From positions 12,586,001-12,650,000 of the forward strand of contig CM120640.1 in assembly GCA_051362555.1 (NCBI GenBank): DNA of 64,000 bases, written 5' to 3'. Each line of letters begins with the position of its first letter. The stretch's first letter is position 1. The translations under genes and the position numbers were made by a program. This document shows, one piece after another, positions 35,893 to 63,735 of this stretch. The stretch is from Lingula anatina (taxonomy: Eukaryota > Animalia > Brachiopoda). The notes beneath the pieces are model-generated. The model made no database searches. It was not told the origin of the DNA and saw nothing but the letters and a program-made list of their open reading frames with translations.

Positions 35893-38800
35893 TCATAGTC
35901 TGCAATCAGCTTGACGAGAGCCAGACTCCGAGTCCGTCGTTGGTTGATCATATCGAATACTGCTTTCCTCGCGCTCTGGGTGACTAAATCTTGGGAACAC
36001 TTCTCCTGACGTGCTTGGGTGATCTCCTTCCTCCAGCCTCTCGGACTTGTTACCTCGGGCGTTTGCCCTACATTGTGTTATAACGATAACGAGGACGGCC
36101 ATTAGTGCCACGCCCACCCCTCCGCTAATGATGGTAAGCCACAGGCCAAGGTCTGTCGAATCTATTCCCATCTGCCCAGAAGCTGAAATATTAATGTGAT
36201 GGTCACCAAACCTCCTACGATATCATGGGTGTACACATCTTATAATGTTAAACCACTGAGCAACTAAATGTTCATTTTAACATCTCTTATTTATCTTCAA
36301 AGAGGTGACCTATGCAGAAAAACTGTCTAATATACAGACAAAGCAGAAAAATAACCCGTTTTTAGTGCCATAAATCACTCTGGTAAACTTGAGGTAAATA
36401 ATGCATCGTGTGTTTTCTACTGATAGCATAAACGATGATCCTGCACAAAAAAGATGTTTTTGTCGATTCTGATGTAATATTTAATAATGCTTCACTGCAT
36501 AATTACAACTAAATTTCAAGTATACACTACTGTTAATACGGATATTTAGAAAATGCAACTGATGCTTAAAATACCAATTTGTTAAAAATAAAAACATTGC
36601 GTAAGCAGTGAAGAGCGCATGAAAACGACCCCGACAGCCAGGTGATGGCTATATGCATGGACGCCGTCTGTACATAAACCTCCATGAACATGGGGCATAA
36701 GCAAGAAAACACGAACCGCGCGTTCAGTTACACGACAAACTTACCCTGCCTACTTGGTAGAGCTCTTACACCACTCGTACGATCTGAACAATAAAAACTT
36801 CCATACTTGTTCTCGCATGTGCCGTTGCCACATACGCCAGGAATTTCGTTGCATTCATTGATATCTGAAATGCAATATAGTTCAATAATAAACATGCGCT
36901 GAGTCAGTTTGAAAAGAATTATAAGGCATAACCTGAACTTTAATTAAATTACAGCAACGGAAACTATTGTTGACTTGTCCAAACATTTTTCGTAAGAAAA
37001 ATTAAACTCTGCATATTGCAATGACAAGTTTGCCGAGATGGTAAATTACCAAATAAAATCTATATGAGTGGACTCTAAATGCGCCCTGATAACAGTGGAA
37101 GACCAATCTCGCCTAAAAATTACGTTTAAGATCAGATCAATTGATTGTTAAATGCTTATCAAAGAAAATTACTCAGATTGTTCCCTTTAATAATGTTTCC
37201 CTGGGGAGATCTTTATGCTTCGTCTATTATAATTCATTAAAAATAAGAGATTTAATCATACGGTCACGATGAAAATATTTATCAATTGACGTAAGCTGTC
37301 ATTGTCACTTATATCGCCTGTTAAGTCGTTTAGTGTCACCGTATTCAAAATCTCTCAGGACCCATCACAAAAACAATTAAGTAAAGATGTAATACATGTA
37401 CCACGTTGATCTCGATATCAAGGTTGCACAATGACAGCCAACAAGGGCAATGAAATAACATGGCGGAGGAAATAGTCTTTTCGAAAGGTTAATACGGGTA
37501 ATAACTTTGTAGATGCATTACTGTATGCGGATGAAGTTGTTTTGAAAGAAAATTGAAAAGCGATGTTTGATAGATTAAGTCAATGGTCTCTAGATGGAGT
37601 TTGCTTGCAAACCAGAGAAAAAAATATGCATCGCCGATATAAAATTTAACTGTGGATGGTCGGTTCTTACTTATGAAACGTTTTTAATACCTTGGCGTAC
37701 CTTTGTCAGAGACAATTTAAACATGTTGAGAATTACGGGTGTGAGGCCAAATGTCGCAGATACACTGTATGACATTTGATTCTATAATTGCAAAGGTACA
37801 TGTATTCCACATAAACCAAGCTTTATTTTTGTGCCAGTAAAAATACAAGGATATGGGTTGGGGTTATACTGACCACAGGCAGTTAGATAACATTCAGTAC
37901 AGAACTGCCATAACATTCTTTGGGTTGCACCGGTTTACACCTCTTGGTGATAGAAGGTAATATGGGGGATGTGTACAAAATATAAAAGAAGGGTGCACCT
38001 TTGGTTAAATCTTGGAAGACGTGGAATAGGTTGATAAGCATGAATAATGAAATGATTACGCAAAATCGTTCTTAGAGACTGATCATGCAAGAGAAAGGGA
38101 CAGTAATTGGTCTGACCAAGTTTTTTTCATTCTTTGTCGATTGATAAATTGAGCCACTTGCTTTTTGACTTAGATACCTGTGGCATTGCCCCAGGAGAGC
38201 TTGTGTGAAGAAGAAACTAAACTAAACTATGGGTTTAGAATATTTCAAGCAAATACCGAACTAAAAATTATCTAAGATTTAATCCAAAGCCAACTGAAAG
38301 GTCAATCACTGCACAGCTAAAAAAAGTACCGTATTGCAACAGCGTGATTTGTAAAGAAGATCGAAGAAGGACTTTGTACGCCTGTAGTAGCTAAGGAGTA
38401 GAAGACAAGTATTACTTAAAAATTTGCTCCATCCATGATAATCTCATTGAAAAATTGAAAATTGGGTAAAATTATTTTTTCTGAAGTGAGGGGAGACGTC
38501 GTCTGCTCTTTACAGAGCTCCATAGAAGTACAGCGAGGTTTCTAAGGCCAAAGAGTTGTATAATAGGTGACTTCGTAAGCCCATAGGGCTGGATCACTGT
38601 TTGCTACTGTTACGATCATAAATATATAAAACTAAAAATAATACGTGTAAGGCGACCAAAAACGTATTTGTTCAACCATATTATATATGAATCAAGTATA
38701 TAGCGATGTGTTTCTCAAAGTGTTTCATTTACTGCTCTATTTTAAACTGTCAAGGTCAAAACAGGTGTCACATAAAAACTATTCTACAAAAACAATCGTA

Positions 38801-41800
38801 ATATTTTAAACCCATAAATTACTATCTTGACGAAAATTGACGCAAACGCTATTATTGAAAGGTCAGTCTTACCGTCACACGACCTGCCATCGACATTCAA
38901 CCTGAAACCATTTGTATCACACTCGCAGCTAAAACTTCCAACAACGTTCTTACATTTATGCTGGCAAGGATAACTTAGCTGGCATTCATTGACATCTGAA
39001 ACAGAAGATATTCCATCCAGTACAATTTCAATTCAAATTTAGATCATTGTATGGTGAACATGGTAACGTCGATATTATTGTCAATACCCCAACGTTAGCT
39101 TTGAACACCCTTAATTTATTGTTATAGATTTGGCTATGACAATGTTATCATCAATACTCTTTGTAAATACAGTTCGCATTTGGTTTTGACCGCCTTAGCT
39201 AGCAATACGTAAATGTCCCTGGCGTATTGTTACTAATATTGCCGAATTTCGAATCGCAGAAACTATTTAAGTATAGGCCTACTATTCACAGCTTAGAGCA
39301 TAGCAAGGTACCACGTTCACTTTTGATAACTCAAGGATAATGGTAATATCTACTCCACCTGTGCTACAATATACGGTGAGTGAGTTCATTATCTTTATTT
39401 TGAAATAGTAAACAATGTTCTAACCATCACCGCGATTATACTAAGAGACTTGTACTATATAAATCACACGAAATCATGAATAAATCAGTGAATATTTTAT
39501 ACTGATAGCTTTTGGGGTGTGGCACCTCAAACCTATTCAAAGGTCACTTCTTTGTACGCACCTGTAATTACTTTGTACGTAGGCAAGGACTCGCTTACCT
39601 GTGCACGTAAAATTATCTTGTGCTAGTTCGTAGCCCGGATCACACTCGCATTTATATGACCCCGGATACACGTTGACACAACGGACCTGACACAATCCTC
39701 TTTCCACGCCGCAGCGGTCCTCTGAGGATACAAAAACAAAGTACAGTTTATTTTCAAATTTTTCACACAAACATTCAAGTGCCTGTAAAGTTCACTACTT
39801 TTGTACCTTCAAATAAATGTTATACACGTTTTGATTTTAAGCGACGCTTAGCTATTCATACTCTTCAATGTGCACCGCCCTTTGATGCTACGTCAAATAT
39901 AACCACCATATTTCTGCTCATAAAAAATCCTTTTTCATCGTACTACCAGTACATAATTGATCATAAATGAAAATTCTACAAACCTGCCAGACATAAGTGT
40001 CTGTCCGCTGCCAGCATGTATCCATCCTTGCACTGACAAAAATAGCTCCCCACCGTATCATTGCACATGTGGGCACAGCCTCCATTGTTTATCTCACATT
40101 CATTGGTATCTTTAAAAAAATCGCCACCGATGAGTCTTAAACTTTCCAACCTCAAATATTTCAAGAACAGAGAACTTGAACACACCATTTACAAAAGAAT
40201 GTTGAACAGGTTAAATTATAATATAATTGAAAATGTGTAAGGCCAAGTAGGACATTAAATTACTGGGTATGTCATTTCGTTACGTGACAGAATGTGCAAT
40301 TACATTTAGAGTCAACACACATGATATATATAAAGATGGTATCTCTTTTAATATCCGTCGTGACAAACAAATCGATAATCTGGACTTACTTTCACAGTTG
40401 CTTTTATTAAGTGGGATGATTCTCCCGTCCACATGGCACGCACAGTACTTCTCGTGGTATTCCGGGTGCCAGCAATGCACATCGGAAACTGTGAACACAT
40501 GAAATATTTAACATTATTTCAAACAAATAGTATCTACTGCTATAAAACGGACAAAAGTACTTTACTGGCTACCATGAACGACATTTAATTAATGAGTGTC
40601 ATCTAAAAGAAAGTATGAATTAAGTAGAGGAAACAGACTCTTAGGCCTACTCATTATTATTATTTTCATTTCTGTTCTCCATTTTTCTGAAATATCTAAG
40701 GAGCGAACGTAGGGATTTGTGTTAATAAGTGTAAATTTTGAACCGGTTATTCGTGCTTGTTTCTAACAAAGTCCCAATTAACCAAAAGAAAAATGCAAGC
40801 TTGGGAAGGATATGAGCAATTTACCTTTACAATATGTGCCATTAAATGGTAACACGCGGTTTCCGACAGGGCAAGTGCAATACTCCCCGACTTCGTCCTG
40901 GAAACACTGCACGGGAAGGGGAATCCTGTTGATAATCTCTAGCCTTGTGCCAATGGGATAGGCGTAACTTTCCCTATCCCCAGCTCCGTAGAGAATGCCC
41001 ATAAAGGTCACTTCAGGGTTAACATTGGTCAGACTGTGATAGGGAACATTATCGTTCAACTGGATATAGCCACCAGAGAGCGGAGGGTTGGTGTTCGGGA
41101 TATCGGTCCAACGTACGGAGGAGAGGATCTTCTTGTCTAACAGAAGTTTGTAACGGTATGCATAAGGGATGACGATCATGAAGAAGTTTCGGTATTGCCC
41201 TATGGCGGCAGAGGTTGTGGCGAAGTGATAGTTGTTGCTGTATTGCTCAATGGGTGGGATGAGAATCATGGCAGGATCCGCCTCTTCTGAAGCAGTGGAA
41301 CTTACTTGGCTCTGAACAATTTGAACGACCAAAATGGGCTCACTGGCAGTGATGTAACTGTAGTCCGTGGAGTTGAAGATCATTTCGACAAAGCCCCCTT
41401 TTTTCGCTATGACTTCCTCTCGGTTGCCAGAATTTTTATAAATATTAACACGAGTATTTGACTTGCTGGATACGATGCGAAACACGTCACCGATTGTACG
41501 CTCTGGTATTGGCACTGTCGCAAACCGCTTGCCCCAGGATTGAATGGGTGGGATTTGCTCAACCAGATGGTCGCGTGAACCGCCTGTGCCTACGCTAGTT
41601 CTCACGTTGCCACTGAAGACAGAAACGGGGTCGCTTGAATGAATAAATGTCCCTGTAAGATCTCCTTTATTGTTGCTTTGTAATTGTATGGTCTGGAATC
41701 TATTGATGGTTGTCTGAAGGGTATTTCCATTGGAGTACTCTATGCCTTCGTAAAACACAGAGATGGGAGGTTCGGCGTCGTCAGGGAATATTATGGTGAG

Positions 41801-44800
41801 CTGTGTGTTGTTGTGAACTCCGGCAAGCCCAATTTCACAATTTGTAGTCGGTGGAGCGTATGTAACAACAAAATAGTCATCTCCGAGAGCGTCGACTGGT
41901 AAACCTAAAAAGCCATCGGTGGAATATTCTTCTTTGTTGATACCGTATACAACCAAGTCATCGCTTGCCGTTACCAAAATACCTTGGTTGGTCTTTCTGG
42001 TTCCGCTCATTCTTAATTCATATGGAAGGTCTATTTTGTTCACCGTTTCAGGGCTTACAGTGATAGAACGGACGACACTACTCATTGCAGTTCTCACGTT
42101 CACCGTGACGTTATTTGTGACCTTGCTACTGGGGGTAACCCAGAGTTCAAGGGGATTCCTTTTGGGAAATTCGATGCGGTTTTCCATGAACATCAGCATA
42201 AAATCCTTCCCACTGCTGTCCACAAAAGTAACAATTTCTGAAAATAATTAATGCAAATTTACTTAAACACAGAGGGTGCGATATTTGTACATCAAAACAG
42301 TTGGGGAACATTTGACAACAATTCATAAATTAAATCTGCTAAATATACAGATTTCAAAAAGTCAGGAATCAGAGATGAAAAAAAAACTTATGATCGCGAC
42401 AGATGGTATATTTTTATGGGAGTGATCAAGTACGTTTGGAAAATACGCCTGCAAATGGGCGTTTGAGTGAAAAAACACTGGAAGTCAATATTTTCTCAGT
42501 TAAAAATTTAGTGTGAATGATTTCTTGCGACAAATCACCTGAAAGTAAACGTGCAATGGGTTCTTACAGTCGCATTAAAATAATCTTTTTGCTCGGAGTT
42601 TATTAATATTTAAGTTACGGCTCCTTTCTCTTACCAGAAAAAGCAGATCGTTTTTTCCTAGTTGGCGCAGCAGCGATTTCACACTTGTCAGCTGTAGTTT
42701 CGTTGTCCCACACTGTAACATTAGCACGCGAGAGATGGTACCCGCTAGGACACGCGCAGTAGTAACTTCCCACTGTGTTGACACAGTAGTGGGAACAGCC
42801 GCCGTTGTTTATTGCACACTCGTTGACGTCCGCGGCTTGTGGTGGTGGCGCTATGCATTCGTGCATATCGCTGCTAAGTTGAAATCCATCTCGACAAGAA
42901 CAGAAATAGCTGCCTACCGTGTCGTTGCAAAAGTGTTCACACCCGCCATTCATCCTTGCACACTCGTTTACATCTAACAAAAAAATGTGGTATGTAAGTA
43001 GCATTAAAATGTCATAACCAAAATTTGGAAGTGTCTATCAACTGTTACGTGTTCCTCGATTCAAATTTATGTGGTTGGTCCAGCATTAACTACTTTTAAG
43101 GTACTTACTGTGACAAGTTGACATATTCAGAGGCACTACGACATTATATGTTGTGCGGCATTCACACGTTGTGTATTCTTGTTCCCGTGCGACACAGTCA
43201 ACGTTTTGATCTAAGAGAAATACAAAGTAGTCATCCGTCAATAATTAGAATGGCTATATTACAAGGGGCGACAAACGACCATTAGGCCCCATTCCCATAG
43301 ACACGTAGGTCTACGTGGAGACCAAATTCTGCGGGGATTCTGTTTGAGTGCAATCATTTTAACAGGTACTACGACATTATATGTTGTGCGGCATTCACAC
43401 GTCGCCTCCTCCTGGCTTTAAGTAGAATACAGATAAGCTGGTGATTATACGAGTACGTTGAAAACAAGAGGAGGCGTTTTCAGTTAAGCTGATTGTACTT
43501 AGCGAGAATCCACGCAGAGTTTGGTTGATCTACGTAGATCAGTGGTGTGTCTGTGGGAAAGGGGTCTTAGACTAGAATGGCAAACCTCAAACTGGTTTTG
43601 GTGCTCCTTTTCCGGTTTTTATTACAACACTAATCAAATTAAGTGGTGGTTATAAACAAAAGAATAAATGATGAAAAACCATATAACCGTACGTTTACAC
43701 CTATCAGAAAAGATACCGCATGCGAGTGCACTTTAAATAAAATTATGCATGGATACCGTTTCCAAATTTAGATTTGAGAAAAGACAAGTGAAGCGGTTTA
43801 TCAACAAAACTATATAGATTACGATATGGTGCTAGCGGGTCTCACAATTGACAATCACTACCTTGTTATTGCTTACCTAAGCAATAACTGCCATTAAACG
43901 GTAACGAGGTACCATCTCCCATCAAGCAAGTGCAGTAGGAGCCGCTTGCGTCATTGTGGCAGGTGACTGAAAGATAAGACGTAACTGTCACTGAGCACTA
44001 CTATCACCTATGGAGCCTCATTCTTCACCCAAACCCAATATAGAGGTACAAATTAGGTCACAGGCATGCTCTTAAAAATATTTAGTGCACAGATTACAAA
44101 CTATGTTTGATTATTTTATGGTACCATTTCAAATAGTTTGTATCAAAGTTTTAACTCTCCTGTAACCATGAATAATAAAAAATAATTCATCGTTTAACAA
44201 ATGCAAAACGTCCGGCTGTGGAAACGTTTAACTCAATTTGAAAAATCAATCGTCACTGGTTTTGTTCTTTAATTTATCTCCTACAAGTATAACGTTGTAA
44301 AAAATATGATAATCTTCTGCATGGAGCAGTTCATATTTTTTGAAAGACTAAAGTTTGCTTGTTACCCTACTGACAGTAAAATAAACACTAAATATTTTCT
44401 AAACTATTTTCCATTCGCGGTCCAAATATTATATCAGATGTGTTAAACTTTTATAAAATCACAGTGTTTTTCAGTCAGCAACAAAAACCCCGTTTCCTAT
44501 AGCAACTAGTACTTGGGCAAGATGAAGCTTTCCGACATTTTTCTGGGGAACATACGTGACGTAGTATTAGCCATGACGCAAAGCCCGTGAGTAACAGTTT
44601 AAAATATTTATAAAAACATCCTTACGTCACATATATTTACTTTGACTAAATCACTACAAAATATATAGGAACGCGATATGAAAATTTAAATAAATAAATA
44701 AATAAATTTAAACATACGTTACCATTTAGGCTCCTTAAATAATGTATAGATGTGGTCAAAAATAAATGTCGGTGTAAAATTCAAACAGCCGTGGATTTTT

Positions 44801-47800
44801 GTTCTATACACTTGTTGAAAAATTGAATACAACTTCGGATTCATTCAATTTTATTCTTTGATACTTAAACATGTGAAATGCACTTCTATATTGGTTTTGG
44901 ATGTCGTATTAAAATACTTTATACCAGGATCACTTCACAGTATTTCCCGTATGCATGAAAAGTAAGAACTCAAGTGGAAGCAAATCGGAAGAAAAGATAA
45001 AAATAATTACGGAGAACGGATGCTACATGATTACACGCTTTTTCACAAGTATCTAAGCAAATACGTAAAACAAACCGTAAAACTGAAAAATTTTCATAAT
45101 AGAATTAACCGCGACTCTATAGCCACAAGAATATGAAATGTTCCCATTACAACTTACCTACAGGTCCCTCTCCCAGCTGGAAAATGAAACCGCAACAACA
45201 AATAAAATTTATAACGCAATTTTCAAAAAGAGTTATGGAAATATCGGTAACAATTAATATTATAATGTATTATTATATGTATTAGTTTTTTTTATACCAG
45301 TGAATGGGTTACTTGCTACATGTATATTCTGGTACAAAGTTTCTTAGTTCTAAAACAAGGGCGACTTACCGGATTGATAATTTCAAGTTTGGTGCCTATG
45401 GGATAGGCATAGCTCTCCCTGTCTCCACCGCCATACAAAATACCCATGAAACGAACAGAAGAGTCAGAGTGAATCAGAGTCTGGGCCTGCTCTTCAGTGC
45501 CAGCGGGCAGAGTAACAAAACCACCCACATAGTCCGTGTCTCCTATCGTAGTCCAAGTTGCTTGGATGGTCTGTCCGTTTAGTTGTAGTTCAGTCTCCTT
45601 TCCCCTCGGAATGACCATCATGAAATAGTTGGTGTAGCTGGTGCTGGTTGCAGAAGATGTAGTGGCGAAGCGATAATGTGAAGAGTACTGCTCGATTGGA
45701 GGGACGACAATCATGGATGGATCTGCAGGTTCGGACGGGTTTCTCTGGCTTTTCACAAACTGCACTACCAGGATGGGTTTGTCGGACGATATATGAGTGA
45801 ATTCTGAAGAGCCAATGCTTAGCGTCCTGAAACCGCCAGCGTCATTTATATTGTAGATCTCTGCGGCAACACTTGCTGACCTCTTCAGCGTTACCTTGGT
45901 ATTAGCCTGGCTTGCTATAATCTTGAAGTGGTCCCCGACGGTTCGTTGGGGAATGGGAACGGTGGCGAAATTTTTACCCCAGGACTGAACGGGGGGTATT
46001 TGTTCAACGAGATGGTCCCTTGATATCCCAGTGTCAACAACAGTCCTGATGTTTCCACTAAATAAGGCAATGGGTTTGTCGGACACAATGTGGGTACCTG
46101 TCAGATCGGTGTCCTTGGCACTTTGGATTTCCAAACTTGAGTATCGGTTTACTGTGACATTGATGACTCCGCCATTACCGTACTCGACACCGGCGTAAGC
46201 AACTTTGACGGGAGGAGAGGCTTTGGCAGGAAGCGTTATCCTCACAGATGTCCCATCGTGAACACCAGCTATGCCAAACTCACAAGCGTACGTCGCTGGC
46301 GAGTAGCAGACAGTGTAGTATTCCAAACCCAGCACACTGGCTGGAAGACCAAGGAAACCGTCATTGGAAAACTTGTGCTTGTTGACGCCGTACACGACGA
46401 TCTCTTGTTGTGACTGTATCAGTATTCCTTTATTATCCAAAGCGGTGCCTTGCATTCTCATAGCCCATGGGATAGTGACCATTAAAACTTTATTGGGTAA
46501 GAGTTCTTTTGACTGCGCAATGTAATTACCATTGAGGTGGTACGATATATTGAATGTGAAAGGTGGCGTTGCATTGAATCCCGGGGCGATGAAAAGCTCA
46601 AGATCCAGCGTTGTATCATATTCGTCGACTCGATTTTCCATGAACATAACGGCGAATTCTGTGCCTGCACTATCCTTTATTGTTATTGAAGCTGGAATCC
46701 AATTCAAGGTTGAAAACTTAATTTCTAATTCTTATAAACATCTACTAAAGAAGCTACTGGAAACCTGAACTTTGGATATCGCACATTGCCTAAGCTATTA
46801 AACAATACCTCAATGTCATTTTGTGAAGAAAAAATTGACGATACTTCTTTGTTCATCTTTAGTGATATATATTATTGATATAAAACTTGAAAAACCGGAA
46901 AAAAAATCAAGGGCTAACCTGGGATGTCTCGTTTTCTCCTATTTCCTGGGGTTGGGAACCCTAACAAAAATCAACAAAATATTAACTGATACACGTAAAA
47001 CTTATAGACCGATAACAATCAAGATTTGAAAATGTATGTAGAAAAATATCTGCTTTTGGTTTTAATTCTTACAATACTATAATACATGTACTGTAACTTT
47101 CATCTTTTGGTTTCTTTTAATTGTATATGGTTCACACATTTCCTGAAAAAAAAACAGGATATATATATATATTTTTTTTTTTTTTGGGGGGGGGGGTGTT
47201 CTATATTTTTCTCCAAAAGACATACAGTCCTTGCTTAGTACCAGACTCGATTATATAAATAAAATCAAACATAAAAGTAACAATACATACTTGCACACCC
47301 GCTGGCTTCTGTATCTGTGGGCCATACTGTTAAGTCCGCTAGGGTTAAGGAATATCCCTGACGACAAGCACAGTAAAAGCTGCCGATGGTGTTCACACAG
47401 ATCTGGGAGCAACCGCCATTGTTCACAAGACATTCGTCTGTGTCTTCTGTAACCTCGCCTGCAACGCAAAAGGACAGTTAGTGTCGGTATCAAGTCGTCA
47501 TAACAAAACAAATGCCAGTTGTAGTTTGCAATCATCATGAACACAAAAGCACTTCGAGCTACAATTTTTTAATGAAAAAAATGTAGTCTGTGAAACAAAA
47601 TGAATGTACGTGGAACTAATGCACAATGTGTAAGTTGTTCAATTGCCAAAAGAAATTACCAGAAGGTCCAGTAGGGCCCATCGAACCAGTGGCTCCAGAT
47701 ACACCTCTATCACCCTTTAATCCGGCAGCACCTGTAGGGCCACGGACTCCAGAAACCCCAACTTCTCCCTTGGGTCCCGTGGGACCTCTAGCTCCAATTT

Positions 47801-50194
47801 GTCCAGTAAAGCCAATGGGACCTGAAATCCCAGTGCGTCCAGCAGGCCCTGTCGCACCTGTAGGGCCTATGTTTCCAATTGGGCCAGTTGGACCATGTGG
47901 TCCACTTATACCCTGCTCTCCTTTTTGCCCGGTTGGGCCCGTTGCTCCTGTTCGACCATGTGGGCCGCTTATCCCAGTGCTACCAGTAGGGCCAACAGAT
48001 CCAGTTAAGCCATTCGCACCCCTTGCGCCGGTTGCTCCTACTGGACCTGTTTGACCAGTGTTCCCAACTGGTCCAGTGTTGCCTGTAGCGCCAGTTACAC
48101 CGGACTGACCCTGTGCACCTGTGAGACCGTTTGCGCCTGTTGGTCCTGTGCTACCCGTCCTACCCACTGGCCCAGTATTCCCAACTGCACCTTGAGCACC
48201 AGTTTGACCTGTGGGACCTATAAGGGGAAATATTCAATCATTTTTTATACTTACTATTATTTGCACAAATCTGACAATACAGTCTTAAATCTGATAACGA
48301 ATTGTTCAATAAGAGATATACAGAGGGGGGATATATATATATATATAAGGGAAGGCTCACCGACTGGTCCTGTCGTTCCTTGTCTGCCAGTTGGGCCTTC
48401 AGCTCCTGTCTGTCCAGAAGCGCCCGTGTTTCCAACTACACCTTTAATTCCCTTGGCTCCTTTCTCTCCAGTGCCGCCAGTCGGCCCAATAAGTCCACGT
48501 TGTCCTGATATACCCTGTTCACCTTTCATTCCCTTCATTCCTGTGGGTCCTGTTGCCCCTGTGCGTCCAATTGGTCCAGTAGGCCCCTGGGCGCCCGTCG
48601 CACCAACCGCACCAGTGGGCCCTGTAGCGCCCGTTCTTCCCGTTAATCCAGGGACACCCTTTACACCTTTACCGCCCGTTGTACCTTGTGCTCCAGTTGG
48701 TCCAGCATTACCAGTTATACCTTGCGGTCCAGTGGATCCTGTTCTGCCGGTTAGCCCACTCTGCCCCTGGCTGCCTGTGGGACCATCTGGGCCAGTAGGT
48801 CCCAGTCTTCCTGTTATACCAGAGTTACCTTGGACACCTTTAGCACCTGTTGGTCCAACTGGTCCTGTGGGCCCGGAATTACCTTGAGCTCCTGTTGATC
48901 CTGTCAACCCCTGTATCCCTACTCTACCCATGGGTCCTGTGCTTCCAACTGGCCCTGTCCGTCCAGGAACACCGGTCTGTCCTTGGATCCCTTGCATGCC
49001 TCTCTGACCAGTTGGACCTGCTGAACCTGTGATACCAGACGCTCCTTGTTGTCCTCTCATTCCAGTGGGTCCCATGGCCCCGGTTAAACCACTTACTCCT
49101 TGTTGCCCTTTCGCCCCTTTTGCACCAGTAGGACCAGCCCGTCCAGTTATTCCAGAAACACCCTGAGTTCCCTTTTGGCCTTTGGGTCCTGTAGTTCCAG
49201 TGGGGCCTGACGCACCAATCATGCCTTTTGCTCCTGTAGGTCCAGAAGCGCCAGTTATTCCAGTCTGTCCGGTTCGTCCTTGAGGACCTGATGACCCCAT
49301 GCTCCCAGTCCGGCCAGTCGGTCCAGAACTTCCTTGAGCACCTGTAGATCCTACAGCACCTTGATGGCCAGTAGAACCAGTTCTTCCCTCAGGGCCACTA
49401 ACGCCCTGTATACCTTGTGTTCCCTTTTGACCTTTTTGTCCTGCGGCCCCGGTCGGTCCAGATGCACCAACATCTCCTTGTGCGCCAGTGCTCCCTGTGG
49501 GTCCAACCACACCAGAAACACCTTGTGCCCCCTTTTGGCCTTTCTCCCCAGTTCTCCCCTGTGCGCCAGTGGGTCCTGTGGCTCCAGTCCTACCAAATGG
49601 GCCAGTGACACCTTGACTGCCCTGGTTGCCTTTTTGTCCTGTTGCTCCTGTTCTGCCGACCGGACCTGTGTTTCCCTGTGCTCCAGTTGATCCAACGGGG
49701 CCGTTTGGTCCGGTTTGCCCGGTATTCCCAGTTACACCCTGTGCGCCAGTTGGACCTTAAAAGGTGTAAAGAAACTTAGAAATCTTAGCACTGAAGGGAC
49801 CACTGGTCACGAAGTGCAAACACTTATAAGTCAACAGCGTGCTTTTATTGAGATGATTGGAGTTAGAGAATTGAATCAAACATCCGCTTTATATAAAACA
49901 GATACATAAAGAAATCTTCAAATGATTATCCTGTTCTTCGCTCTAAAAACTAGCCTGACAAAAACCATTTAATATATATAAACACATTCACGACGCTAAT
50001 TATGCAGCTCACCTGCCAATCCTGTTAACCCTGTTTGGCCAATGGCACCTTTTTGTCCAGTTGCTCCCGTTACTCCAATCATACCTCTCTCCCCTTTAGG
50101 TCCAGTGGCACCGACTGAACCTGTTGGACCAGAATTACCTTGGCGACCTATTACAATAAATAAACTTGTATTAAAGAGCTGAATAATACTGCAT

Positions 50195-50257
<63 letters not shown>

Positions 50258-53200
50258 CGGAGTTGGAAACAGCCGAACAAAATAAACAAATAGAGGAAGA
50301 TGCCTGCCGGCTTGTAGAAACCACACCTGGGCCCTCATATTTTGGGAAGACTGGTGCTTGAAAATTTAATTACCAATCACATATAGTGCACACAATGTGA
50401 AGATCTAGCTGAATGTTACAATTATGAATTATTCTGAGTGATAGATGCCACAACAAGGGTTGTATGCTTTAAGCACGGCAGAAATTTATTTTGAATTAGA
50501 AAATCTAAAGATCGTTAAGCGCTCGAAATGGTTCAATTACATCAAGCTATAAATCCTTTATCCTAAATACTGAAGGTGCATAATTCACCTATTTAACATT
50601 ATGTTTATGCCCATTAAAAGATTGTAGTATAATTCTAATTTTTACAGAAAAAGAAAACGCACCTGTCTGACCAACAGCACCCGTCTGTCCAGCGACACCC
50701 CGCGCACCGGTGGATCCAGTTGGTCCCGTTCTCCCCTGAGCACCGACAGCTCCAGTCTGCCCCCGCTGTCCTGTGGCACCAGTAGGCCCAGTCCTTCCAG
50801 CCACTCCGTTCAGACCAGTCTGGCCAGTGGGACCGGTTCGTCCTTGAATTCCTATACCTTCATCACCTTTAGCACCAGTAGGGCCGCTTGCACCTCGTGG
50901 GCCGGTGTTTCCGACTTGTCCAGTTTCGCCCCTTGGGCCTTAAAAAGGTTTACTTCATTCTGATTTTTATTATCTAACAAAATTTTACATATCAAGAAAA
51001 GGCAAGTTTAGAATGTTAGCCGTTTTAAAGTCGCACACTAAGCATAACAAAGCAAAGAAGGACGCCGTTAAAAAAAAGCGTTCCATTAACATAGGAGCTC
51101 CCCACTGGTGAAAATGATTTATATTTGTCTCCTATACACGCTCAGCAAAGGCGTAACATGTATAACTTAGGATCTTACCGGTTTGGCCAACACGACCTGT
51201 AGCACCAACTGCCCCTGTTTGTCCGGTTTGTCCAACTGGACCAGTATTACCTATAGCTCCCGTCGGCCCTGGCCTTCCATTAGTGCCTCGAGGACCAGTT
51301 GGACCTGAAATTATATGAAAAATACACGAATATTCATCATAAATGAAATATTTATTTTGCTTTGAGATTTTGGGGTATGTAGAGAGAATCTATTTGGAAA
51401 GGTATCTGAAGGAAAAATCAAACATCCGATCGATGTAATACCTTCAATTATGTGTATCATAACAAACCGAAGGATGTGCTTTTAAAACTAATTGAAATAA
51501 TTCCTATATCATTCATCATACATTTAGAATTAGAATAATATAACCATCTTCACTATTCCATGAGTAAATCAATTTTGCGAAAATTGCTGCATCGCACAAA
51601 AAAAACTTTATTATTTATTAAAGACAAAAGTTTTTGTAAAATTGTTCCTTACCTTGAATTCCCTTTGGTCCAGTCATTCCGTTGAGCCCTGCCAGGCCAG
51701 GCGGCCCTGTAGCTCCTGCCCGACCTTTCTCACCTTTAGGGCCAGCATTTCCAGTCATTCCTACGATGATTCAAGAAAATACGGATACACTTTGTTACAG
51801 AATGTTACAAGTAGGAAATCCTTCAACAATACTATTCCCGACATGCAAAATTGGTATATTTTTATCATCACTTAAATAAATAAAAACTGAGAACTTCTAC
51901 TTAATTATAGAATCAAAAATTCTCAAGAATCGTTCGATTGCATCCGCCATGGGCTGCCTCAAACCGTCACGTCAGCGATGGCTGTCAGCGGTTGATAACC
52001 AATTCTTGCTGGTTTTATTTAGTGAACTATTCTTCTTCAGCTAATATTTTTTTACTTGGGCTTATCATTATGAATAATCTGCAAAGATGTCCCTCCACTT
52101 TTCTATGGCTAAAGAATACATTACAATGCAAATCTCCACTATGAATACAAAAAAATAATAATAATAATAATTTATTGAGCACTAAAATGTTTCAGTACAT
52201 TTTGCAGGCCCTCTTAACTAATTGTGTTATACATACATGTAAAATATATCTAGACCTATTATCACACTTATGTGATATCAGGCTTACATGCATAAATGTA
52301 ATTATATGTTTCATAATTACGTTATATACGTAATCTACACTATCTAGAGGCACTTAAGAAAAAAAATTGCCTGTTAAATACTTAAACAGCCTCTGGCCAC
52401 CAGTTGTACCAGTACCTCTGAATGCAGAAATTACCTTGTACACCTGGGTTACCACTTTGTCCCGTGGGTCCGGCTGCACCAGTTGGTCCTGCAACTCCAG
52501 CGGCACCTGATGGTCCTGTAGGTCCCACAGAGCCAGGGCCACCTTGAAGGCCTGTGGGTCCCGTGGGTCCAGCGGCCCCTGTGGCTCCAGCAGGCCCTGT
52601 GGGTCCGGTGGCACCAACAATGACAACAGGGCTTGGGGTAGTAGGCTAAAATTAAGAGAATAAGTAATAAAAAGAAAATGTTCAAGATACCCGGTGAAAA
52701 TTTAAAGTATTGAGTTTCACTGTCAAAATGGTTAAAACATGTTTTAAAAATTATTCTGAAACTTACTATTGGGTTGAGGGTCACGAGTCGCATCCCCAGT
52801 GGAAACCCATAGCTTTCTTTGTCACCTGCTCCGTACAGGACACCCATGAAAGTTACACTACCACTAGTGTGAGAAAGCTCAAACGATGCAGACGAGCTTG
52901 GGATATTGAAGTCGGTCCCCATATATGGTGTCCCAGGAATGGGCTTCCAGTCAATGCTAGTTATTCCGAACGCCTGGAGCGTTTTGCCATTAATCAGCAA
53001 CCCAGCAGTTTGGTCTTGGCGAATGGTGACCAAAAAGTGGTTGACGTAAGTGCCCCGCGCAGCCTGCGGTAGAGAAAATTGGTACTTGGAGTCATATTGC
53101 TCCATCGGCGGGACAATGATCATGGACGGATCGGCCAAATCAGCATTGCTCGTCTGGCTGTACACAATTTGTGTCACCAAAATTGGTTTGGTGGCAAAGA

Positions 53201-54335
53201 CATAGGAATTCCCGGATATGATGGTTTGATAAAAGTCACCGGCGCGTGCAATATTGTGGAGGAAAGTACCACTGGTGTTGGTTATGCCAACAATAGTATT
53301 GGCAGAACCACCGATAATTTTAATGAGATCTCCGGTCGGTCGATCCGGAATTGGAACTATTGAGAAGTTTTTACCCCAAGATTCAACAGGTGGGAGCTGT
53401 TCCACCAGATGATCGCGAGAGACGCCATTGACACTAGTTCTCGCGTTACCGCTGAATACAGATATTTTCTTCGTTGACATGATGTGGGTTCCAGTCAAAT
53501 CGGCTTGATTCCCGCTTTGAATTTGAAGAGTATGATGTTTGTTCATTGTAATATTGAAAGAGTCGCCATTTGTGTAGACTTGACCTAAAAAGTTGACTCC
53601 AATGGATTGTCCAGTTCCTTGGCGCTGGGGAAACGTTACCGTAACCACGGTGCCATCTTCTAAAGCAGCAAGACCAAATTCGCACGTGTACGTTGGTGGG
53701 GCGTAAGACACCGTGTAATATTCCTGACCAACGGCATCAGATGGTATAGCTAAAAACCCGTCGGTGGAGAACTCCTCTTTGTTAACCCCATAAATAACCA
53801 CATCTTCTGAGGCTTCTATATGGACACCTCTATTAGATAATGACGAATCGCGTGGCATTCTGAACTCGGCTGGTATGAGCATGTGACCCACCGTGTTGGA
53901 TGAGAATGTAACAACTTGATTTGAGGAACTGCTTTGAAAAATCTGATGAAGTGCCACGCTAACATTTCGTAAAGGTAGGGTGTTGGAATCCACCGGTGTG
54001 ATGAAGAGCTCCAGATTAAAACTGTTCGGGTTTTCGACTCGGTTTTCCATGAACATCAGCATAAACTCCCGCCCCCCACTGTCTATTTCCGTGACAATAA
54101 AATCTGGAAAGGGATAGCAGATTTTAAAAAAGAGCCTGTGGATTAGGGGAGACAGGGGCTAGTTGGACCCCGGGTTAAGTTGGCCACCATCAATTCATGA
54201 CAAAGTTACTATGGGGTAAAAGAATTTATCACATTTTGTAAAGTGACCGTATCCAATAGTGCTAAGAAAGCGTCGGCAGTGAGTCCAAATGAAATAATTT
54301 AGCATCTGAAAGTAACTTTATTAAAGAACCTTGAT

Positions 54336-54376
<41 letters not shown>

Positions 54377-54805
54377 ACTTCCCCCGGGGTCCAACTAGCC
54401 CTGGTCTCCCTATGTATTATTTACCTTTAATTTCAAACAAATCCACGGTGAAGGATATCTTTAAATTTTACACGCGCACTAAGTTTTCTAGATTTTTTTC
54501 AGAGATATACCTTGCGAAATTAATAGTAAAAGTCAAATTTATAATTTTTTATTCCATCTTTCTATTAAATACAGATACCCTATAACTGATAATAAAAAGG
54601 TTACAGTGTTACTTTTATGCAATTCACAGAAACGTCACAAACATTACATTACCTGATGACCTTTGAATTGTCAAGAATGCGCGTCGTTTTATTTCATGGT
54701 TTTAAAACAAGTTACTATATATCATTAGTTTCTATACCTACCACCAGCCAACGTGATAGTGAAAAAGACTGCTGAAAGTAATGTTACTTGCTTCCAACCA
54801 GCCAT
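35893..54805 (-). CDS. Large predicted type I transmembrane collagen: SP - FCGBP-N - Gly-X-Y (about 926 aa) - EGF - FCGBP-N - Cys modules/EGF - RKKR - FCGBP-N - Cys modules/EGFs - TM - short tail; about 2,847 aa
   Basis: 22 coding exons, all GT-AG with compatible phases: 54742-54805, 52767-54103, 52435-52645, 51653-51760, 51179-51304, 50663-50938, 50013-50147, 48361-49755, 47660-48217, 47291-47458, 45370-46691, 45158-45176, 43877-43966, 43109-43210, 42635-42973, 40825-42237, 40390-40488, 39984-40109, 39599-39721, 38873-38995, 36745-36864, 35893-36182 (sum 8544 nt). One signal peptide ([21 protein letters not shown]) and one TM helix ([22 protein letters not shown]). Confidence 0.8.
37330..38600 (+). 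mobile_element. Decayed non-LTR retrotransposon (LINE, CR1/L2-group-like) fragment, antisense in an intron
   Basis: Broken-frame peptides: [12 protein letters not shown]...MFDRLSQW (YADD-like RT motif, about 37510-37590), [15 protein letters not shown] (about 37915-37970) and an EEGLCT.C...VED C-terminal Cys motif (about 38360-38430); multiple stops and frameshifts. Boundaries approximate. Confidence 0.55.
40825..42237 (-). CDS. Exon encoding FCGBP N-terminal (IgGFc_binding-like) domain 3 plus a 4-Cys module
   Basis: [77 protein letters not shown], then [26 protein letters not shown]. Confidence 0.85.
43285..43566. mobile_element. PIF/Harbinger-like hairpin MITE with TTA target-site duplication, containing a 35-bp copy of the adjacent exon
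   Basis: TTA at 43282-43284 and 43567-43569; long imperfect inverted arms (ggccccattcccatagacac / gtgtctgtgggaaaggggtc, aattctgcggggattct / agaatccacgcagagtt, cgcctcctc / gaggaggcg). Confidence 0.75.
45370..46691 (-). CDS. Exon encoding FCGBP N-terminal (IgGFc_binding-like) domain 2
   Basis: [79 protein letters not shown]. Confidence 0.85.
47660..52615 (-). CDS. Collagen triple-helical region over 7 exons, about 308 Gly-X-Y triplets with one G-I-G imperfection
   Basis: Gly at every third residue. Exons of 108, 126, 135, 1395 and 558 nt are exact multiples of 9 and the introns split the Gly codon (phase 1). The 276-nt exon contains GDE-GI-GIQ. Confidence 0.92.
50198..50256. repeat. (TA)n microsatellite
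   Basis: About 29 TA units in a collagen intron. Confidence 0.9.
52767..54103 (-). CDS. Exon encoding FCGBP N-terminal (IgGFc_binding-like) domain 1
   Basis: [76 protein letters not shown]. Confidence 0.85.
54144..54412. mobile_element. TA-flanked MITE with about 28-bp terminal inverted repeats and an internal G39 run
   Basis: ta-ggggagacaggggctagttggaccccggg ... cccggggtccaactagccctggtctccc-ta; poly-G at 54336-54374. Confidence 0.7.
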
Positions 54806-55618: not shown

Positions 55619-55810
55619 CCTTTGGATGACACTCTCAAGCTGAGAACATAGCAGATGGCAAAACGTGGAAGCAAACCCCTTTCCCTCCAAACGACGGACC
55701 CTTGAAAAGGCTCAAACTAAAGTGTTGCCCCACCTGCTGTTATTTGACTGTTCCCCGACCAACTTGAATGAACCGCCTTTTAAAAACTGCTCACCTTGAT
55801 GACGTCATAG
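55619..55810 (-). promoter_or_regulatory. Putative 5' non-coding exon and promoter of the collagen/FCGBP-N gene
   Basis: Minus-strand donor AAG|gtaggt at about 55619, acceptor just upstream of the ATG at about 54813, TATA-like TTTAAAA near 55780 and a perfect CRE palindrome TGACGTCA at 55800-55807. Confidence 0.35.
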
Positions 55811-59343: not shown

Positions 59344-60249
59344 CTAACAAGACGTTGCTCTTGATCTAGCCTTTGGTTTCACAAGAATATCAAGCATAGC
59401 AATATACTGCTGTAAAATCTTTGGTAGGGGAAGGCTCCGAAATACAAACATGACCTGCTGGCCCAGGCCTTGGCGGATGGCAATTCTACAAAGCTCTATG
59501 AGAGGTGGAGGTTGTCGACTGTTCTCATTGAGAAGCATTAATATCTCTGGGTTTCTTTGAAAAACCTGTTGAACCCCTGGTAAGCTGTATATATGCTGAA
59601 TATTTACTTTGGCCCCAGCAAATAGGAGATATCTAACATTTTCAAAACTTTCCTGACACACTGCCATATCTAAGGGTGTGTGATGGTCCACATTGGTCAC
59701 ATTGGGGTCTGCCCCATGCCGCAACAAACATAGGAGAGACTCTGTGTGATTGCGTTGGGTTGTGACATGCAATGGGGTCCAGGTGCGGGTTGTCTCATTC
59801 ATATCACACCCAAGTTGAACCAGTTTTTCGATCATAGCCACATGATTTCCACAAGCTGCTACATAGAGCAGGGTCTCATTATACTGGTTTCTTCCCCTGT
59901 ACTCAACACCCCACTCTATTAACAACAAGGCAATATCTGTGTGGCCCTTCAACACTGCCAGGTCCAAGGCCTTAGATTTTCGATCTTTTGGGATACATCC
60001 ATAATCCAATAGCAATTGCACAATGCCCAAGTCCCCTTTGGCAGCTGCTTTTTCCAGTGCTTTCATATCATTTTCAATCTTACTATAGCCAGCAGTCAAG
60101 ATCTTCTGGACTTGTCTGTAGTCACTCTTCCATATTGCCTTGTACAGAATACGCTGCTTGCCATTAGAACTCCCTAACTTGAGAGTTAAGTTATCCAGGC
60201 GATGGTTTAGAGTGTGAATGAACCTGAAGTATTCTTCAACAAAGGACAT
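59344..60249 (-). CDS. Ankyrin repeat and SOCS box protein (ASB family), 301 aa, single coding exon
   Basis: Ankyrin repeats (ALEKAAAKGDLGIVQLLLDYG, TLLYVAACGNH, WTPLHV, TPLDMAV..LLFAGAKVN) and a C-terminal SOCS box (PPPLIELCRIAIRQGLG...LPLPKILQQYI). Splice acceptor in the 5'UTR at about 60423. Confidence 0.9.
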   Translation of the reverse strand: MSFVEEYFRFIHTLNHRLDNLTLKLGSSNGKQRILYKAIWKSDYRQVQKILTAGYSKIENDMKALEKAAAKGDLGIVQLLLDYGCIPKDRKSKALDLAVLKGHTDIALLLIEWGVEYRGRNQYNETLLYVAACGNHVAMIEKLVQLGCDMNETTRTWTPLHVTTQRNHTESLLCLLRHGADPNVTNVDHHTPLDMAVCQESFENVRYLLFAGAKVNIQHIYSLPGVQQVFQRNPEILMLLNENSRQPPPLIELCRIAIRQGLGQQVMFVFRSLPLPKILQQYIAMLDILVKPKARSRATSC

Positions 60250-61643
60250 GGTAAGTCAGTTACACATTCCCCACTGCATAATTTAAAGCTGCTCTAAACA
60301 GCAATATGAGCTTCATCTCTTTCTGTGCTGAAGCTATTCTGCACTACATTTTTTTTTTGAATGATTACTTTTCCTCACAGGTATAAGCTCTTGCTCTTGA
60401 GCTGAAGAGGTTGTTTGCTTTCCTGAAAACAGAAATTCATCTCTTGTATTAAAAAGTGACATAAAACAGAATATCACACAGAATGTGTGCATCACTGAAG
60501 TGACTGAGGAGATTTAATATTTATCTTTTTACAGAATGACCCTTACAGACACTTGTTAGAGGTATGACATTCTCAACATGAAAAAAAAGACTATTAGGCT
60601 CTTTTTTTAGTATTATGCATAAAAATATTACATATATGATTACAATATAAGCATTACTTGGCAATCACATTAAGATGATTATGTTTCAATGCATTGTTTC
60701 TTCTAGTTAATGCTTTTGACACTGGTCACATTAAACTGCAATTCTGCTATGATAAACCCTTTAGGGCACTGAAGTCCAAAGTCCCATTACTAATACAAAA
60801 TATGAAGTCAAAACACATTCTTAGCATAACCTGTTATGTTGTGTTTCATGAAGAAACTCAATGGCTTCCCACATGTACTGTGCATGTACCTATACATGTA
60901 CCAGTAGTTTTTCTTCTTGTTTCACAATTACACAGTAAAAGCTGCAAACCAGTTTTTAATGGGCAAACCGTTACTATAAAGGCCTAAGACTGCTGCTGTT
61001 TTGGTGATTATGCAAACTAAATATAGCTAAATGACTTTGGCAGTTCTTTTTAGTGTAAAAAATGTTCCCAAAATACTTATACCTGTATGTGAGTTATTCT
61101 GATTAGCAGCCACACCCCATACCCCTGTATGCTGCCACTTAAAAGTGAAATGCATTGCTACAGTGACGGTGATCTGAGATTGTTAGTGCTGTTCGAGCTA
61201 AAGAGGAAACTTAAATAACGAGATCTCGTCTAACCCTTAGCATGGGTACATGCATGCACTTTCTGTACAAGTACATCCAATGATCGATCAGCTGATAAAA
61301 AAAATATTCTAAGCGTGAAACTAAAAAAATGCCAACATGCCCATTGCTGAGAAAGTCTATAACACCTTGTTTACCTTATGAACGCGTGTTTCAGCGATTG
61401 CGATCAAAGATATAGTCTAGGCGACTAGGGAACCGTTCATACTGCCAAAATTTTGGTGAACCACGTCGTGTTAATGTTTACGTCGCACTCATAACATTTT
61501 AACCAATTGGCGTACGACCTTATATTTTCTCCTGACCGATCGGTTAGAAATTAGGTCAAAGTAACCAACACGGTCTAGCGATCGGTAGAAGGAACCATTT
61601 ATTTCGTGTACTACTGAACCCACTAAAACGGTGGCTTTTTCAG

Positions 61644-61972
61644 GTCGCGTACAACCAGTAGATGATAGAAGTGCTTACTCAGACTACGGTAATAATTTTC
61701 TACATATCTCGGGTCCGTTTCCAGAGCGAGTAGAGTCCAGATCATCCGGCAATCTTACCCCAGTGGAAGCGGCCACTGACGACACACCCAAGGCAAAACA
61801 AACCCACAAGATGCCCAGGGGAAGTGTAGATTTCTTTGTTCCAGAGGGTGAGCCCGACGGTGCCTCGAAAAGGAGTGTCCCACAGCACGGCAGGGATAAC
61901 ATGGAAATGTCGACCAACATTGGGTTGCGGAGAGTAGAATCCATGGAAACTCTTAACCTAACGCTCCACCAG
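61644..61972 (+). CDS. Probable first (coding) exon of an unidentified gene divergent from ASB; continues beyond the window
   Basis: GC- and CpG-richer open frame ending in a strong donor CAG|gtaagt at 61972/61973; possible ATG at 61811 (MPRGSVDFFVPEG...) and possible acceptor at 61643. No domain recognised. Confidence 0.5.
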
Positions 61973-63735
61973 GTAAGTTGTTTGTTTATAAGGTATAGAG
62001 TTAACTGACGTCTCTAGAGATAGTAAAGGCATGTAAGATTTGTAGTTCTGGGCATTTACTCAGTTTTGGGTATAGCTTGAACTCTGATTCACATCATTTC
62101 CATGCTAAGTAATACGTCCCTACTTATTATAATTTATATCCTGTTGAACTGTTGTGTTTGCTTATCATTTTATGTGAGACCAACTGCCTGTCCCCAGCAC
62201 TCCTATTTTGTATTAAATATACATTCATTGTAATTCAGAGTGAAGTGCCAGGGCTTTGCTGATACCAGAATTAGCCAAATGTGATCATTACGAAAACATC
62301 TACCATTTGTTTTCTCTTTTGAACTTCATCCAAAAATCTGTTGAATAGACGAAAATTTTCTGCCCCAAACTGTAGATTGTCATAAATTCATTCATTCCAT
62401 AATATAAAAGTTTGCACTGAAATAAACGATGGGTAGTAGCTTAAGACTACCTTGTATTTGAGGGTAATGTTGGAAAGTGAGATGTAAAACATAATGCCCC
62501 ATTAGATGTTGCTTATTTAGGCCATGTCAACACACTTTAAAACAAAAAATGAGGGGTATGTGGTATCATACATTTAAAATTTAATCATTAAAATTATTTC
62601 CTGTATTGTACTAGTATTTGTTAATCCGACATACTAATTCTTTCTTTGTATATGACAAAGAAAATAAGAAATGATAGAAGAATTATTTAAATTTTATTCT
62701 TAGGAGTTAAACCAATTAAAATATTTCTTAATGATGATTAAATGAAATATAAAATAAACCTTGATTACACTAAGGGAGCCTTTAAGAACCAAAGCTTTTC
62801 AAAGTTCATGTATTTATACCTTTACATATTCTGTATATTGTATTTCATACCTATTGCACTGTGCTGGTAACATGATGAATAAACGTTTACCTATGCATCC
62901 ACAGTGTCAACAGCACCACCCATGCTCTGTTAGCACATGACCCAATTCAGCCGATATAGTATTTATTGACAAATTGTCTATTGTGAAATGTGGTGAAAGG
63001 GTGAAATGAGGGGTTTTAATAGCATTATATATTATATATTATACCTTCACTGGGATTAGTCTTACTATCCAATTCTTTACTGTTAAATGAGAGTGGTCAC
63101 TGCCAGCTGTAGCTTTTTATGCTATGTTGTAAAGACCAGTAGGCATATGTGTTACAGGTGCTATATATTCTGTTAGGTCAGGTATATCAGATTACTGACA
63201 CCTCTGTAGTAAGAGGATATAAAGTGGGTTGTGCCAGGTAATGGGAAATATCATGTAGGTGTGCCCTTCCCTATTTGTCAAACACCATCTCTGTTTATAC
63301 TTGTTACAAAAGAGAATTTTACTTAAATTATTTATTTCTTAATAAAGTCTGATTCTACCTTTTTATCTGATATGATTAAAATCACAAAAAAAAAACAAAC
63401 AAAACATAATGACTAACACTTTAGTGAAGACTTTGCAATAAAGTATCTGCTGCATTAGATTCAATGAGAGACTACATAGCTGAGGCTGAAATACCTATAT
63501 CTGCATATGTGCTAGATGGAACAATTTTGATGGATAGGGCCTCATCCATATTGAGAAAATGGGATTACATCATTTGTGGGTATACCCTGATAGTCTGAAA
63601 ATCCTTGGTGGAAATATCCTATGGCCTTAGTTTGAAAGCCCAGAAATTGGAGATTAGTCCAATAATTGACTAGTCTTAAAGATAATTAGTCCATCAATAT
63701 ATCAGTTGTTTTTAAGCATGAAAGTATGAATATAT

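Follow-up and report, generated by a model that had tools for sequence, protein, structure and literature searches.

Which product does a cell make from a protein that joins a long collagen helix to globular heads and then anchors itself by its C-terminus? The question is raised by a gene in a 64,000-nucleotide stretch of the Lingula anatina genome (assembly GCA_051362555.1, contig CM120640.1, positions 12,586,001 to 12,650,000), hereafter the window, where it occupies the minus strand from 54805 to 35893 and encodes 2,861 residues with three FCGBP-N domains and a predicted transmembrane (TM) segment. An initial annotation made from the sequence alone had proposed a trimeric cell-surface stalk with FCGBP-N heads at both ends. 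We favor, with a probability of about 0.5, a membrane-tethered precursor that would be cut at two furin-type motifs, RRKR and RKKR, yielding three pieces, each headed by FCGBP-N, and freeing a ~265-nm rod, predicted to be trimeric, whose threonines are likely glycosylated. The rod length predicted earlier holds, but the annotation had overlooked RRKR, which would make the stalk a precursor: since RRKR separates the collagen-EGF portion from the rest, a shedding precursor is the likelier product than a standing stalk.

Protein layout and furin-type motifs

The chain runs from a signal peptide through FCGBP-N, 309 Gly-X-Y triplets, an EGF, RRKR, a second FCGBP-N, EGFs, RKKR, a third FCGBP-N, and further EGFs to the TM segment and a 59-residue tail. 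This is the order proposed earlier, RKKR included, except for the RRKR after the collagen-EGF. Pfam recovers the three FCGBP-N domains as IgGFc_binding matches (PF17517; E 1e-57 to 1e-60), one exon each, together with Collagen and EGF_CA/cEGF. None of COLFI, C1q, C4, VWD, VWA, C8, or TIL is among the Pfam matches of the full protein, in agreement with the earlier statement that no COLFI, C1q, NC1, VWD, or VWA domain is visible; no RGD was found in the protein. Only two stretches pass a hydropathy scan (KD19 > 1.6), residues 6–28 and 2776–2807, the second followed by basic residues. By hydropathy, the predicted layout is thus type I, as first proposed, with an N-terminal signal peptide and a C-terminal TM segment, and the scan finds no type II arrangement (an N-terminal cytosolic domain with the TM segment before the helix).

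The C-terminal half contains a duplicated unit. Residues 1406–2030 and 2031–2645 are 46% identical over 624 columns, and each copy comprises an EGF with a long loop, a basic motif, FCGBP-N, two four-cysteine modules, and an EGF. This ~620-residue duplication is old.

Only two R-x-[KR]-R motifs occur in the whole protein, RRKR at residue 1467 and RKKR at 2090, and both have the full R-[KR]-[KR]-R form. They fall in the same column of the two duplicate copies, just N-terminal of an FCGBP-N domain, and at the motif level both lie between the membrane anchor and the helix. The first conserved motif of FCGBP-N follows the basic motifs by 9–10 residues, compared with 7 from the predicted signal cut. 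When the non-collagen ectodomain was shuffled 5000 times, two R-x-[KR]-R motifs appeared in 1.6% of the shuffles and two R-[KR]-[KR]-R motifs in 0.04%. Among 123 internal FCGBP-N domains from 52 multi-domain proteins (isoforms counted separately), two have R-x-[KR]-R within 30 residues upstream, and both come from this gene. The idea that FCGBP-N works only when N-terminal, hinted at in a passage of PMC4948705, was dropped after this count.

A threonine-rich collagen helix

The Gly-X-Y region (residues 478–1406) consists of 56 + 253 triplets with a single two-residue break. Taking 0.286 nm per residue, it would measure ~265 nm, close to the ~260 nm first estimated. At 929 residues, it has the fibrillar-type feature of a nearly unbroken helix of about 1,000 residues; unlike fibrillar collagens, the protein has no C-terminal COLFI propeptide among its Pfam matches. 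A scan for a D-periodic stagger based on charge and hydrophobicity, with a method unchecked on a true fibrillar collagen, gave a best z of 2.5, below the shuffle mean maximum of 3.1, and a z of 1.4 at 234, and no strong triplet repeat was found in the helix. The rod is basic, with 64 K/R versus 16 D/E, and is free of cysteine.

Threonine, a feature absent from the initial annotation, occupies 131 of the 309 Y positions versus 6 X positions (Fisher p 8e-39) and is evenly spread along the helix. Proline is found at 76 X and 6 Y positions, and with so few prolines at Y the usual route through 4-hydroxyproline is nearly closed. According to excerpts of the two sources, (Gly-Pro-Thr)10 is helical only if galactosylated (PMC11923368), and the cuticle collagen of Riftia pachyptila relies on glycosylated threonine (PMC11766948). 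By analogy, the Thr-rich, Pro-poor Y position matches the glycosylated-threonine collagens, and predicted O-glycosylated threonine likely stabilizes the rod. The likeness to the Riftia protein lies in threonine being dominant and proline almost absent at Y, a likeness of composition; glycosylation shown there is predicted here. The Riftia collagen is several times longer than this one.

The proposed precursor

In the mechanism that we propose, the signal peptide would bring the chain into the endoplasmic reticulum, and the C-terminal helix would stop its transfer, giving a type I membrane protein. The anchored C-terminal half would then gather three chains at the membrane, a role suggested by the lack of COLFI, C1q, or NC1, and the helix would zip from its C-terminal end, with the anchor acting as a C-propeptide. 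O-glycosylated threonine at Y would take the place of hydroxyproline. Cleavage would release piece A (residues 22–1470; 140 kDa; isoelectric point 9.9), comprising head, rod, and EGF, and the soluble piece B (residues 1471–2093; 68 kDa), and would leave piece C (residues 2094–2861; 85 kDa) bound to the membrane; each piece would start 7–10 residues ahead of the first conserved motif of its FCGBP-N domain. Piece A would finally enter an apical unmineralized matrix, such as a cuticle or mucus coat, where its basic rod and heads may bind acidic glycans or one another. Two of these steps have published counterparts, as described in parts of the respective sources: the membrane-associated collagens whose triple helix has interruptions (MACITs) are shed by furin (PMC4678570), and the procollagen C-propeptide can be replaced by a TM domain (Bulleid 1997, as cited in PMC7015688).

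The known transmembrane collagens (XIII, XXIII, XXV, and C. elegans COL-99; XVII, ectodysplasin, gliomedin, and MARCO) are likewise made as membrane-anchored collagen, and furin-type motifs that separate their anchor from the helix allow the ectodomain to be shed, an outcome predicted here. They differ from this protein in having the opposite topology, and it in turn has a nearly unbroken 309-triplet helix, apparently no membrane-proximal coiled coil, and globular domains on both sides of the helix. The streptococcal proteins Scl1 and Scl2 combine an N-terminal head, a hydroxyproline-independent collagen stalk, and a C-terminal anchor; they are bacterial, their head and anchor are unrelated, and the comparison is one of analogy only.

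Several observations weigh against the precursor. The anchor lies ~1,370 residues from the helix end, a distance at which it could concentrate the chains but would hardly set their register. Two Lingula paralogues have a heptad-like stem close to the TM segment; none is seen in this protein, where the best windows of a crude heptad scan fall in Cys-rich EGF sequence (0.6, versus 0.70–0.77 in the two stems). The internal FCGBP-N domains lacking an upstream motif (121/123) imply that the domain needs no free N-terminus elsewhere. Three related type I models, Lingula LOC106163541 and LOC106153735 and the bryozoan Watersipora XP_067936654.1, have 0 R-x-[KR]-R motifs, and furin shedding is therefore not a family trait. 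No orthologue with the full layout was found outside Lingula among the best 120 of 466 matches. Finally, the RNA evidence chains junctions from short reads, without a single full-length molecule.

The three motif-free models would stay anchored, and in this respect they speak for a retained cell-surface stalk, an adhesive or sensory tether whose motifs are unused or whose cut pieces stay bound. The two unpaired cysteines, C162 in chain A and C2231 in domain 3, also fit retention, as does human FCGBP, whose pieces remain joined through disulfides after cleavage (PMC8267560, in part). We consider such a stalk unlikely, however: both motifs keep the full R-[KR]-[KR]-R form and an equivalent position, although 54% of residues differ between the copies, the EGFs ahead of each motif have all six cysteines and thus none left to bridge a cut, and the 59-residue tail has no Pfam match.

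Gene structure and expression

Twenty-three minus-strand coding exons with AG/GT ends and compatible phases form a single open frame of 2,861 residues, whose start is fixed by an in-frame stop two codons upstream of the ATG. The evidence from RNA comes from seven of the nine short-read runs labelled with this species, of which X1 and X2 cover exons 7–23 and X2 and X3 cover exons 1–6; paired read counts below follow this division. All features are on the minus strand:

55620..55711: non-coding exon 1; joint 54812/55620, 113 and 80 reads; 5' end approximate, placed at 55711 where the molecules end
54742..54805: coding exon 1, predicted signal peptide (residues 1–21, hydropathy); joint to 54103, 118 and 79 reads
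52767..54103: exon 2, FCGBP-N domain 1 (residues 22–467); PF17517 E 6.5e-58, AlphaFold2 predicted local distance difference test (pLDDT) 95
47660..52645: exons 3–9, Gly-X-Y region (residues 478–1406), from the translation, Pfam Collagen, and RNA junctions
52645-52435, 51760-51653, 51304-51179, 50938-50663: collagen-region exons 3–6
50147-50013, 49755-48361, 48217-47660: collagen-region exons 7–9
47291..47458: exon 10, calcium-binding-type EGF whose last loop is long; joint 47457/47659, 25 and 43 reads
46919..46960: exon 11 (42 nt), RRKR (residues 1467–1470, bases 46940-46929); joints on both sides, 47–92 reads
45370..46691: exon 12, FCGBP-N domain 2; PF17517 E 1.9e-60
43109..45176: exons 13–15, linker and two small four-cysteine modules without Pfam match (translation, Pfam)
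45176-45158: exon 13, a 19-nt micro-exon whose letters lie inside a joint, 53 and 62 reads
43966-43877, 43210-43109: exons 14 and 15, part of the linker and four-cysteine stretch
42635..42973: exon 16, a pair of EGFs (long loop in the second), then RKKR (residues 2090–2093, bases 42659-42648)
42237/42635: joint of exons 16 and 17, 19 and 21 reads
40825..42237: exon 17, FCGBP-N domain 3 and first four-cysteine module; PF17517 E 3.1e-57
36745..40488: exons 18–22, four-cysteine module followed by three EGFs and then a final EGF that has just four cysteines; joints 22–182 reads
40488-40390, 40109-39984, 39721-39599, 38995-38873, 36864-36745: exons 18–22 individually
35893..36182: exon 23, predicted TM helix (residues 2777–2802, bases 36150-36073), 59-residue acidic Ser-rich tail, and stop

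The initial annotation had counted 22 exons, in place of which we find 23 coding exons and a non-coding first exon ending at 55620. The missed exon is most likely 46960-46919, with 14 codons: 2861 − 14 = 2847, the 'about 2,850' residues given originally. The reading as one gene in one frame stood. Reads support 22/22 coding introns, 21 as listed joints (11–182 reads per joint over the whole gene; two of these introns are shown through the one joint that holds the micro-exon). The remaining one, intron 6, is supported by loose read ends on either side whose letters agree with the partner exon (73, 122, 149, and 90 reads). The two junctions singled out for checking, 47660/47458 and 42635/42237, are both among those crossed by reads. 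Depth, taken from binned tables, is 76–147 in X1/X2 over fully exonic bins from exon 2 to exon 17, compared with ~8 in X2 for a neighboring ankyrin gene, and shows no step after the collagen exons. An AATAAA lies at 35867, and read depth drops to 3–6 in the bin below 35893.

One could imagine a chance join of two neighboring genes, or an artifact of assembly, given the internal duplication that makes up the C-terminal half and the fact that no short read spans the entire message. Against this stand the read support for every junction, the even depth, the lack of an AATAAA in introns 9–11, the single signal peptide and single TM segment, and the existence of the same model in RefSeq. This reading is already largely refuted, and we regard it as very improbable. 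The collagen locus is a real, single expressed gene, and its model is already public, though undescribed, as Lingula anatina XP_013406006.1 (LOC106170605, 'uncharacterized'; 2,861 residues, 18 substitutions, 0 gaps). A second AATAAA, at 42604 in intron 16, is a candidate intronic polyadenylation site that could give an anchor-less form, with no surplus in the depth bin there.

The gene is expressed in 3/7 RNA runs. X4 and X7 have 0 exon reads over exons 7–23, a stretch with no control gene, and X5 and X8 have 0 reads over exons 1–6, yet 1–4x on the neighboring ankyrin gene. Given these four runs, expression looks restricted by tissue or stage; X8 reads differ at more places over the ankyrin gene and may therefore come from a different population.

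Two local repeats were seen along the gene. A 48-nt copy of part of exon 15 (92% identical) lies inside intron 14 (window 43355-43402, minus strand) and is reached by none of the listed joints. About 32 near-identical bases are common to exons 17 (42170-42202) and 2 (about 54036-54068), where they appear as loose read ends; the FCGBP-N domains of these exons are only 45% identical as protein, and the near-identity is possibly a short conversion tract.

FCGBP-N heads and related proteins

The type I collagen topology looks like a small family, because the combination of FCGBP-N, collagen, EGFs, and a C-terminal TM segment is found again in two paralogues from Lingula and in one bryozoan model. 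LOC106163541 and LOC106153735 have three FCGBP-N domains, TSP1 repeats, 53 triplets, EGFs, and TM; Watersipora XP_067936654.1, a single gene prediction, has FCGBP-N, 51 triplets, EGFs, and TM. All three share with this protein a last four-cysteine EGF, which in the three models precedes the stem, and a short tail. They differ from it in having all FCGBP-N domains N-terminal and a short helix of 51–53 triplets near the membrane, in the TSP1 repeats of the two Lingula proteins, and in the absence of furin-type motifs. Threonine holds 10/53, 9/53, and 17/51 of the Y positions in LOC106163541, LOC106153735, and XP_067936654.1, respectively. In quick trees, the three FCGBP-N domains of this gene group with a fourth protein, Lingula LOC106178224, and three unnamed Logan fragments (Shimodaira–Hasegawa-like approximate likelihood ratio test, SH-aLRT, 99). 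The Watersipora model is not resolved with them, and the tree therefore does not show a common origin of the type I layout.

LOC106178224 has FCGBP-N directly followed by collagen, with threonine at 58/71 Y positions, and no TM segment. Its collagen is interrupted (about 80% Thr at Y) and is followed by a basic stretch and a ~140-residue C-terminal domain without Pfam match, a candidate trimerizing domain for which the ESM Atlas matches are unnamed clusters only. For the Lingula paralogue P0257, the ESM Atlas gave no usable match. Further afield, in a Scyliorhinus (shark) protein of 3227 residues, a ZP module accompanies seven FCGBP-N domains, and the C-terminus has a hydrophobic stretch.

Like vertebrate and amphioxus FCGBP, the Lingula protein has FCGBP-N (PF17517) and uses the secretory path; unlike them, it has collagen and a TM segment instead of VWD, C8, and TIL. 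The earlier remark that FCGBP-N normally sits in front of VWD/C8/TIL applies to chordates only, whereas in most invertebrates FCGBP-N occurs without VWD, according to the relevant section of PMC4948705. AlphaFold2 (72 sequences) models domain 1 as almost all-beta with a predicted template modeling score of 0.94 (pLDDT as listed above). PDB sequence searches found nothing, and fold searches returned generic beta-sandwich matches only (Foldseek TM-score under 0.2; best VIA Z 7.2), which name no fold and exclude none. A three-copy complex prediction for residues 103–435 of domain 1, in which the alignment was not used, scored 0.00, which speaks neither for nor against a trimer.

These heads could also make the shed trimer a soluble defense collagen, in which clustered FCGBP-N heads would bind microbes as collectins and ficolins do, except that the heads sit at the opposite end. 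FCGBP-N stems from a mucus protein and is present in proteins that bacteria secrete (PMC4948705, in part), which fits this role, and LOC106178224 offers an FCGBP-N collagen rich in threonine with no TM segment. Yet excerpts of PMC11796319 call the function of FCGBP-N in human FCGBP unclear or unknown, the head model has no clear solved relative and hence no ligand can be named, and the helix extends over 929 residues. Collectin stalks are far shorter. We judge a defense role for the shed rod rather improbable.

Closest in the same species is the class of Lingula collagens with EGF domains, 17 genes of which 4 are in the shell proteome (Luo et al. 2015, PMC4595640, in part). This gene shares with them a long Gly-X-Y region directly followed by a calcium-binding-type EGF, without COLFI, and may be among the 17 counted there; the three FCGBP-N domains, two furin-type motifs, and C-terminal TM segment set it apart, and the main text of that paper, as available, contains neither 'transmembrane' nor 'IgG'. 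The protein might thus be one more EGF-collagen of the phosphatic shell matrix, and two genes with FCGBP as best match are mantle-specific in the supplement of PMC4595640, with identifiers not mappable to this gene. The EGF-collagens of the 2015 shell list, however, have 795, 774, 781, and 1548 residues, none of this size or domain set, and the 2026 proteome supplement file examined does not contain the accession, its nine collagen-domain proteins being others. Absence from two shell proteome lists weakens a shell role, which we hold to be quite improbable, with the caveat that heavy glycosylation could hide peptides.

The proposed precursor would build on two things known already, the Lingula class of collagens with EGFs and the furin-shed membrane collagens. 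The initial annotation knew of no described protein of this architecture. For such a collagen, we likewise found no description of a type I topology, of FCGBP-N heads, of a double-motif polyprotein, or of a Thr-rich helix in narrow searches of open papers, and nothing for 'IgGFc-binding' together with Lingula; the gene is nevertheless present in RefSeq, its collagen-EGF class is described, and its layout recurs in the two paralogues and the bryozoan. A 2025 survey of human proteins with at least nine Gly-X-Y repeats has secreted and type II membrane forms only, in the portion of PMC13138384 consulted. Tentatively, and with some doubt, we propose that an undescribed family of type I membrane collagens, with a C-terminal anchor in place of the C-propeptide, is present in brachiopods and bryozoans, and that in this gene a convertase-cut polyprotein has an anchor half that seeds a Thr-glycosylated, hydroxyproline-independent helix of fibrillar length and is then cut off. 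If true, this would be a natural counterpart of the engineered TM-for-C-propeptide swap. A natural C-terminally anchored collagen without a known trimerizing domain would show another route of triple-helix assembly, in a layout that recurs in two phyla. The gene would also supply an animal sequence, cloned and full-length, for helix stabilization by glycosylated threonine, together with a context for testing what FCGBP-N does.

Neighboring features

Upstream on the same strand, the ankyrin control gene is an ankyrin-repeat and SOCS-box frame at window 59344-60255 (minus), with low depth in 4/4 runs. Beyond it, an exon on the opposite strand at 61600-62004 (plus), without a Pfam match, has a depth of 12–21 in X2/X3 and likely belongs to a divergent neighboring gene. 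Downstream lie a rhodopsin-family seven-TM fragment at 26061-26870 (minus), whose last helix has a lysine, as opsins do, and, at 16762-18226 (minus), exons that encode a subunit of a Cys-loop ligand-gated ion channel. Exons of a long coiled-coil protein, with a weak RIMB1_N match below cut-off, are found at 1928-2539 and 8213-8953 (minus), and a BNIP3-family exon lies at 11291-11524 (plus).

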